DNA from: a virus
Taxonomy: Duplodnaviria > Heunggongvirae > Uroviricota > Caudoviricetes
Virus record (IMG/VR): IMGVR_UViG_2713896788_000002
Reading direction: 5' to 3' (one strand)
Length of the DNA stretch: 4,484 nt
Of this stretch, positions 1,140 through 1,653 are shown one piece after another (within the stretch, counting starts at the first letter, position 1; every line of letters begins with the position of its first letter). Made by a program: the position numbers and the translations under genes. A model generated the notes under the pieces. It searched no databases. It was not told the DNA's origin and worked only from the letters and a program-made list of their open reading frames with translations.

Positions 1140-1316
1140 ATGGCGTTAACACACCGCGAACTCTGTCAGATTGCGTACAAGTTCCTTAAGCGCAACGGTT
1201 TCAAGGTTTGTTTTCATGACCGCTTTATAGCTGTAACCAGTACCGGAGAACAGCCAGATGCTATGGGATTCAGAAATTCAGCATCATGCCTGACTGGCGA
1301 AATGTTCTCGTGCTGA
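1140..1316 (+). CDS. Small protein (59 aa) resembling the N-terminal half of a PD-(D/E)XK (Hjc/VRR-NUC-like) nuclease; possibly the 5' part of a frame-disrupted gene
   Basis: AGGAG at 1128-1132, 7 nt before ATG 1140. Translation MALTHRELCQIAYKFLKRNGFKVCFHDRFIAVTSTGEQPDAMGFRNSASCLTGEMFSC has an E..Q...L..NG...G.PD pattern like the first half of Hjc/VRR-NUC nucleases, but stops (TGA 1314-1316) before any E-x-K motif. Confidence 0.45.
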   Translation: MALTHRELCQIAYKFLKRNGFKVCFHDRFIAVTSTGEQPDAMGFRNSASCLTGEMFSC

Positions 1317-1317
1317 C

Positions 1318-1653
1318 TTGTTGGCAGATAGAAAAAAGCGTTTTCGTAAAAATCCGTCTCTTGGAATGGGCGACTGGCGATTCTTTATTAGTGAGCCGGG
1401 AATTATTTCAATTGAGGATTTACCACCTGGCTGGGGATTACTTCACGTTGTTAACGGAAGAGTACGGAAAGTACATGGGTGGCCCAAGGGTAATTGCTGT
1501 TGGGGTAATCCTGACGATAAGCCATTTACTGGAAATAAGCAGGTTGAATGCGATTACATGTTGTCTGCATTAAGGCGCATGGAGTTGAGAGGGCACCTTA
1601 ATGAAATATATGACGGTGTAATTGTTAATAAGAAAGAAGGAAACGCGGCATGA
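1318..1653 (+). CDS. Hypothetical protein; start uncertain (TTG 1318 or ATG 1366); possibly the 3' part of the same disrupted gene as 1140-1316
   Basis: Frame opens immediately after TGA 1291-1293 and has no convincing SD before either candidate start. Its 3' end is clearly real: stop TGA 1651-1653 overlaps ATG 1650 of the next gene (ATGA). Translation includes GDWRFFISEPGIISIEDLPPGWGLLHVVNGRVRKVHGW, which looks like genuine protein. Confidence 0.5.
   Translation: MLADRKKRFRKNPSLGMGDWRFFISEPGIISIEDLPPGWGLLHVVNGRVRKVHGWPKGNCCWGNPDDKPFTGNKQVECDYMLSALRRMELRGHLNEIYDGVIVNKKEGNAA

Follow-up and report, generated by a model that had tools for sequence, protein, structure and literature searches.

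Probable recent inactivation of a prophage gene for an MmcB-like PD-(D/E)XK-fold nuclease in the exo-xis region of Escherichia coli O157:H7 prophages

The virus sequence IMGVR_UViG_2713896788_000002 (Caudoviricetes), analysed here as a single window of 4,484 nucleotides (nt), contains two consecutive reading frames at positions 1140-1653. Are these two genes, or one gene broken by a frame change? An earlier note, made from the letters of the window, had described the region as a nuclease-like gene split just past its PD motif, with recent inactivation, a sequencing indel or two real genes as possible explanations. Recent inactivation is supported by the finding that intact homologs are single open reading frames (ORFs) and that the lesion lies at the codon of Glu53. 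We conclude, with a probability of about 0.85, that 1140-1653 is a recently inactivated pseudogene of one prophage gene encoding an MmcB-like nuclease of the PD-(D/E)XK fold.

A single 516-nt coding sequence is annotated at the corresponding locus of phage 1717 (gp06; YP_002274216), Shigella phage POCJ13 (gp75) and phage P7 (Upf89.0). It translates to 171 residues reading ...TGEQPDAMGFRNSASCLIEAKCSRADLLADRKK... and occupies the same place as in the window, after an Ead/Ea22-like gene and before a DUF551 gene. The DNA identity of the three orthologs to the window is 97-99.6%; unlike the window copy, they are uninterrupted 171-residue ORFs in which the segment I-E-A-K is kept. Single proteins of about 170 residues spanning the junction, which the earlier note had proposed to look for, were found in these three phages (~171 residues) and among 324 close homologs across Enterobacterales, mostly of about 160-175 residues. 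In a six-sequence DNA alignment the window and the phage 1717 allele differ at just four columns (155-158), and the two frames combined match the intact gene base for base except at 1294-1295. The codons of Ile52 and Glu53 are abolished by this lesion (Table 1) and the zero-frame translation ends 337 nt ahead of the original stop. To judge from these alignments the split-gene pattern exceeds chance, because the intact counterpart is a single ORF in hundreds of phages and genomes.

The same 514-nt gene, with a 2-nt loss at the same site, is present in phage Stx2a_WGPS6 (H3V27_gp09), where GAT-TGG replaces the GAC-TGG of the window. That record gives no function and already carries the annotation 'hypothetical protein (pseudogene)'; the pseudogene status of the locus is therefore on record, and the phenomenon itself is commonplace. 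The 1717, POCJ13 and P7 orthologs are labelled 'hypothetical' alone, and the name 'minor tail protein' on one RefSeq copy is an error.

The motif from which a nuclease had been suspected, RELCQIAYKFLKRNGF...TGEQPDAMGF, is present in the 5' ORF. This ORF has 58 residues plus the stop (59 residues had been counted) and ends 18 residues after Asp40, not about 14; the frames part at codon 52, 12 residues past Asp40, where homologs show I-E-A-K. Residues 1-51 are those of the intact protein, including the invariant D27, E37 and D40, and residues 52-58 (TGEMFSC) are out-of-frame junk. In the RefSeq Sakai genome the fragment is ECs_3008, a 'hypothetical protein'. The +1 frame was found, as described earlier, to be open from 1294, directly after TGA 1291-1293, and to end at an ATGA junction with the next gene. 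The remaining motifs of the intact protein (K55, SRADLLAD, GMGDWRF, GWGLL and KPF..NKQ.E) lie in this 3' part, which gene callers begin at TTG 1318 to give 111 residues. On inspection of the sequence no AGGAG-like element was found ahead of TTG 1318, and just a weak TTGGA precedes ATG 1366, in agreement with the earlier view that no convincing ribosome-binding site serves either start.

We propose that the ancestor was one ORF of 171 codons. It would have shared the transcript of the early-left (exo-xis) operon of lambdoid prophages and, directly after the Ea22-like gene, would have been translated from a Shine-Dalgarno sequence of its own. A small deletion-insertion (TAGA>TT), followed by a T>C change giving CT, would then have removed 2 nt at codons 52-53 in the O157:H7 lineage. 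Translation from ATG 1140 would now halt at 1316 after 58 residues, with the remaining two thirds unread in the +1 frame. The window copy is predicted to be catalytically dead whatever is translated, because even a frame-shifted product would be without Glu53 and the site is without a slippery sequence. The next gene, H0067, would lose its ATGA coupling with a translating ribosome and would keep its own GAAGGA site.

Table 1. Features at and around the split locus (window coordinates)
Feature	Positions	Strand	Details and basis
Shine-Dalgarno AGGAG	1129-1133	+	6 nt before ATG 1140, just ahead of the stop of the Ea22-like gene; read from sequence
Ead/Ea22-like gene, stop TGA	1136-1138	+	Pfam PF13935, E 4.5e-41, and annotations
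Whole frameshifted gene (514 nt)	1140-1653	+	DNA alignment with 516-nt (171-residue) orthologs
5' fragment ORF, 58 residues plus stop	1140-1316	+	Stop TGA 1314-1316
Lesion	1294-1295	+	Intact CCTGA-TAGA-GGCG to CCTGA-CT-GGCG, net -2 nt; alignment
3' part, +1 frame, residues Ala54-Ala171	1297-1653	+	Stop TGA 1651-1653
H0067 (118 residues, no family match)	1650-2006	+	Own GAAGGA ribosome-binding site at 1636-1641

The alleles were counted in 5,426 complete E. coli genomes using 44-nt queries centred on the lesion, every 28-base seed of which spans it. The window allele (GAC-TGG) occurs in 51 genomes (52 places), the WGPS6 allele (GAT-TGG) in 215 genomes (254 places) and the intact allele (ATAGAG) in 707 genomes (874 places, 199 of them on plasmids). 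Every row listed for the frameshift alleles that names a serotype is O157:H7 or O157, and some O157:H7 genomes hold a further, intact copy in another prophage. The frameshifted sequence is also present in the separate phage records YYZ-2008, phi330 and WGPS6. This distribution fits a lesion that arose once, in an O157:H7 prophage, and was then passed on by descent and among related prophages. GAT-TGG is probably the older allele, since it is four times as frequent, and GAC-TGG derived. Neither of the mutational intermediates, an intact synonymous ATT-GAG allele and a simple delta-AG allele, was found in the complete E. coli genomes.

Compared with the intact allele, the window shows a 2-nt loss and two substitutions, all confined to 4 nt. 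The step from GAT-TGG to GAC-TGG is a T>C change in the context A-T-T-G-G (N-T-W-G-G). N-T-W-G-G is the kind of site where very-short-patch (Vsr) repair of E. coli turns T into C. In all, about 930 of the 5,426 genomes carry copies of the gene, and 250 of 1,300 gene places are plasmid-borne. Lambdoid prophages and the P1-like plasmid prophage P7 (841-3339 of the P7 locus) have the module of Ea22-like gene, nuclease gene and downstream gene in common, at ~98% DNA identity; this identity and the plasmid-borne share suggest recent exchange between the two phage types.

The gene has also been broken in other ways. In phage 2851 gene positions 403-407 (5 nt) are deleted, on one E. coli chromosome the copy is interrupted near codon 18 by an IS66 element, and in another E. 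coli copy the first ~30 nt are replaced; further truncated cluster representatives are present among the homologs. The IS66-inserted and 5'-replaced loci yield the same 111-residue 'protein', as gene callers choose the TTG equivalent to 1318. Since it arises from unrelated lesions, the 111-residue ORF is a recurrent by-product of them and no conserved gene. The overall picture is that of ordinary decay of an accessory prophage gene.

The nature of the lost protein was deduced from its intact relatives. The profile search gathered 3,218 clusters at 50% identity. In 39 diverse members the residues H5, C9, D27, E37, D40, E53, K55, D60 and D64 are invariant, as are the C-terminal motifs GMGDWR, GWGLL and KPF..NKQ.E. 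A confident AlphaFold2 model calculated on the family alignment (predicted local distance difference test score 84.8, predicted template-modelling score 0.79) consists of a helix (5-18), three strands (22-25, 41-45 and 48-54), a second helix (58-64) and a further strand (80-85). D40, E53 and K55 fall on strands 41-45 and 48-54 of the model, and the family shows the superfamily pattern of an Asp plus (D/E)-x-K; the window copy itself lacks it, its E53 codon being destroyed and K55 out of frame. The predicted active site combines D40 of strand beta2 with E53-x-K55 of strand beta3; the invariant D27 and E37 may also contribute.

A Protein Data Bank (PDB) entry, 3DNX, appeared among the sequence matches at E 0.58, a value useful as a lead alone. 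3DNX (SPO1766) is the structural representative of DUF1052/PF06319/COG5321, a PD-(D/E)XK family of ~160-residue proteins related to archaeal Holliday-junction resolvases (PMC3424549; PMC1189080), the current Pfam name of which is 'DNA repair protein MmcB-like'. For comparison, 105 full-length genes were fetched by a degenerate motif (DNA pattern) scan; the two that were checked against Pfam are PF06319 members (158 bits), and the contigs are of Rhodobacteraceae type, fitting the description of PF06319 as mostly alphaproteobacterial (PMC3424549). Profile-profile comparison of the phage family with this set (hhalign) gave 96.2% probability and E 2.3e-9 over 89 columns, an E-value that is optimistic because the comparator was picked after 3DNX had emerged as the best match and its members were gathered through a motif. 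The alignment pairs the Asp, E-x-K, the S-R-x-D-F/L-x-x-D helix and the next two strands (GMGDW--RFF with GYLEWCDRYF and LP.GWGLL with LP..tGLI).

In a viral structure library the significant matches beyond close relatives include phage proteins (E 2e-7 to 5e-4) that carry the names 'MmcB-like' or 'MmcB family DNA repair protein', with VRR-NUC proteins and resolvases ranking below them. This structure-based ranking is independent of the hhalign comparator and agrees with the MmcB-like placement. The weak Foldseek matches in the PDB are nearly all nucleases, and four of ten distant family members have a sub-threshold Pfam Hjc match on the motif segment. Against the archaeal Hjc model (PF01870) the E. 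coli protein gave no match and the distant members scored 12.8-17.4 bits (cut-off 21.1). In PHROGs the protein falls in families 9263 and 631; taken together, searches with it and with the two fragments gave families 9263, 631 and 16308, all of unknown function, and a weak match to a 'DNA repair protein' (phrog_5429, E 3e-3).

Identity between PF06319 and the phage family is ~18-27%, with homology seen at the levels of profile and structure. Unlike PF06319, for which a mainly alphaproteobacterial distribution is described, the phage family is carried by phages and prophages of Enterobacterales, and it has extra invariant residues (H5, C9, D27, E37, W122 and KPF..NKQ.E). We place the family in the Hjc-like branch of the PD-(D/E)XK superfamily, as a divergent sister of PF06319, in line with the Hjc-type relationship proposed in the earlier note. 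It is not filed as a PF06319 member because the curated model does not detect it: the intact 171-residue protein is missed even at E<=10, and true members score ~158 bits. The intact protein is very probably a PD-(D/E)XK nuclease.

Several results weigh against this assignment. No model in Pfam (E<=10), NCBIfam or PADLOC matches the intact protein, and family searches with the two fragments gave no useful match. PDB sequence searches with the protein and the family profile returned nothing significant (E 0.25-0.58), and Foldseek against the PDB found nothing below E 1e-3 (best 7e-3). The acidic residue usually supplied by helix alpha1 is not strictly conserved in the family. The post hoc choice of the hhalign comparator counts on the same side. 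In the literature examined, no demonstrated activity was found for the phage family or for 3DNX, and any biological role is a guess from family and neighbourhood.

Two domain arrangements were seen among the homologs. In the Salmonella proteins P0091, P0093 and P0104 (240-245 residues) an N-terminal Ead/Ea22-like segment (PF13935) is joined to the nuclease domain (in P0091, profile positions 3-162 match residues 61-220); the two adjacent genes may truly be fused there, or the arrangement may come from read-through or annotation. In a distant member, P0136 (428 residues), a TniB-like AAA+ ATPase region (Pfam TniB, E 3e-6) precedes the nuclease domain (265-423), a hint that transposon-type elements use the domain as well.

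As to function, the intact protein would be a small one-domain metal-dependent endonuclease. MmcB of Caulobacter crescentus is described as a PD-(D/E)XK endonuclease with a protective effect against mitomycin C and cisplatin, probably through crosslink repair, and is reported to be SOS-regulated (PMC9578287). Branched (structured) or damaged DNA would be the likeliest substrate, because MmcB is described in crosslink repair and relatives in the branch are junction resolvases. Early in the lytic programme the protein would most likely assist phage recombination or repair; for recombination or repair specifically we put the chance at somewhat less than even. The gene neighbourhoods are compatible with such a role: E. 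coli phages carry the gene in the same early-left region as the exonuclease gene and downstream of it. An Ea22-like gene is not a conserved partner, as two more distant homologs sit in other early-region contexts.

The phage-encoded RusA and Rap/NinG, the junction endonucleases known from lambdoid phages, belong to protein families other than this one. They are likewise small DNA-structure nucleases with accessory recombination functions; in E. coli phages they are encoded in the nin region of the rightward operon, whereas the window gene belongs to the leftward exo-xis region. A homolog of 66% identity in a Providencia rettgeri prophage (locus 3831-4868) is found in a nin-type region, where it shares a few bases with a Lar-like restriction-alleviation gene on its upstream side and with a RusA resolvase gene, to which it is translationally coupled, on its downstream side; a Dam methylase gene is nearby. 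For the anti-defence function raised as a possibility in the earlier note there is no evidence, and neither the intact protein nor any of five neighbouring ORFs matched a PADLOC model. Literature searches with Upf89.0, ECs3008 and the PHROG identifiers found no paper on the gene, and the word 'nuclease' is absent from a modelling paper on exo-xis proteins.

Other explanations of the split were weighed against inactivation. A sequencing or assembly indel, with the real phage gene intact, would leave the remainder of the gene identical to the intact allele, as is seen and as a recent mutation would also give. However, the exact 44-nt sequence across the lesion is present in 51 complete genomes and a one-base variant in 215 more, obtained in many laboratories and years, and several independent phage records (YYZ-2008, phi330 and WGPS6) carry the lesion; the change is moreover a deletion-insertion with substitutions in non-repetitive sequence, and no homopolymer miscount. 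The 266 independent complete genomes refute this alternative of the earlier note, and we regard an error as practically excluded. Equally negligible is a programmed +1 frameshift or four-base decoding that restores the full-length protein. It would account for a downstream frame open from exactly 1294 through the original stop; that frame is still open because the lesion is young. Intact homologs need no such recoding, the site (CCTGACTGGCG) is free of slippery runs and its zero frame contains neither a rare codon nor a stop where the shift would occur, inspection of CCTGACTGG found no slippery sequence, and the shifted product (...SCL(T/L)AKCSR) would be without Ile52-Glu53, including the invariant catalytic Glu. 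The earlier suggestion of two real genes, in which the 58-residue fragment, a re-initiated 111-residue fragment or both are kept for a new non-catalytic function such as that of a decoy or dominant-negative partner, was not supported. Both ORFs are called as proteins in RefSeq genomes, and termination-reinitiation is conceivable with TGA 1314-1316 one base from TTG 1318; set against this, neither internal start has a ribosome-binding site, the 324 homologs include no stand-alone ~59-residue family (short members are heterogeneous truncations), and the other 111-residue fragments, which stem from unrelated lesions (IS66 insertion and 5' replacement), are debris. The intact copy in another prophage of some O157:H7 genomes, with which a decoy could interact, and the persistence of the lesion in a successful clone also speak for two genes; the persistence is explained by clonal descent, and the absence of any change outside the lesion gives no selection signal either way. 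We consider retained fragment genes very improbable.

Adaptive loss accepts the same pseudogene and holds that inactivation was selected, since an active nuclease harms a host with many related lambdoid prophages. All three base changes are confined to 4 nt at the catalytic codon, the other 512 columns being unchanged; inactivation has arisen in E. coli in at least four independent ways, and about a quarter of the places in complete genomes are frameshifted. Yet the 266 frameshifted genomes are compatible with one event and O157:H7 clonal descent, 707 genomes retain the intact site (O157:H7 strains and many plasmid prophages among them), the other lesions are scattered along the gene as neutral decay predicts, and one lesion near one of ~five key residues is statistically unremarkable. 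Selection for the loss is judged unlikely. A more specific form, in which loss of the Glu was selected because the nuclease cut inter-prophage recombination intermediates, or in which the fragments act as dead inhibitors of co-resident intact copies, is improbable; if selected loss were true, the clustered changes and repeated disruptions would be a footprint of inter-prophage conflict. Inactivation followed by ordinary decay is the reading we retain.

For a gene so far called 'hypothetical protein', split in two or misnamed 'minor tail protein', the description MmcB-like PD-(D/E)XK nuclease is now available, and the O157:H7 copies in Sp15/Shiga-toxin (Stx) phages can be flagged dead. The novelty is modest and consists in assigning a large 'hypothetical' phage family to the MmcB-like/Hjc-like nucleases and in mapping live and dead copies among Stx phages. 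A specialist will not be surprised, because prophage pseudogenes and unannotated PD-(D/E)XK families are both common. The exo-xis region of Stx phages affects the lysis-lysogeny decision and prophage induction; because Stx phages differ in whether the nuclease encoded after ea22 is active, results from a 1717-like phage (intact) may not transfer to Sp15, WGPS6 or 2851 (broken). The two frameshift alleles can serve as simple lineage markers within O157:H7.

Over 601 bases around the locus the window is 100% identical to VT1-Sakai (AP000400; prophage Sp15 of E. coli O157:H7 Sakai) and 97-99.8% identical to many Stx-converting phages, Shigella phages and the P1-like phage P7. The gene order on the + strand, from annotation and Pfam, is TraR/DksA-type zinc-finger gene (lambda Orf73-like), Ead/Ea22-like gene, split nuclease locus, H0067, DUF551, DUF4222, excisionase (DUF1233) and integrase; an exonuclease gene is annotated further upstream in the Sakai genome. 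From this order and the exonuclease gene the locus is the exo-xis part of the early-left operon, where the earlier note had correctly placed it.

ATG 1650 of H0067 overlaps the stop of the nuclease +1 frame as ATGA. H0067 is intact in the window; its counterpart is 135 nt long in phage 1717 (locus 2053-2187), annotated as separate N- and C-terminal halves in phage 2851 (locus 2048-2404) and flagged as a pseudogene in WGPS6 (locus 2051-2407). Closely related Stx phages thus show complementary decay of adjacent accessory genes.

A run of 50 N (224-273) masks the junction of the TraR/DksA-type zinc-finger gene and the Ead/Ea22-like gene. The listed 374-residue ORF at 14-1138 is an artefact of reading through this mask; the VT1-Sakai record, of identical sequence, has two overlapping genes of 73 and 315 residues in its place. 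Finally, a 28-codon ORF at 2362-2448 (MMNWPEAFTAVGVAIAVAFILYSLFRWG), which carries no annotation in the VT1-Sakai and Sakai records, overlaps the stop of the DUF551 gene as ATGA. It encodes one hydrophobic helix, and its product may be a small membrane peptide.
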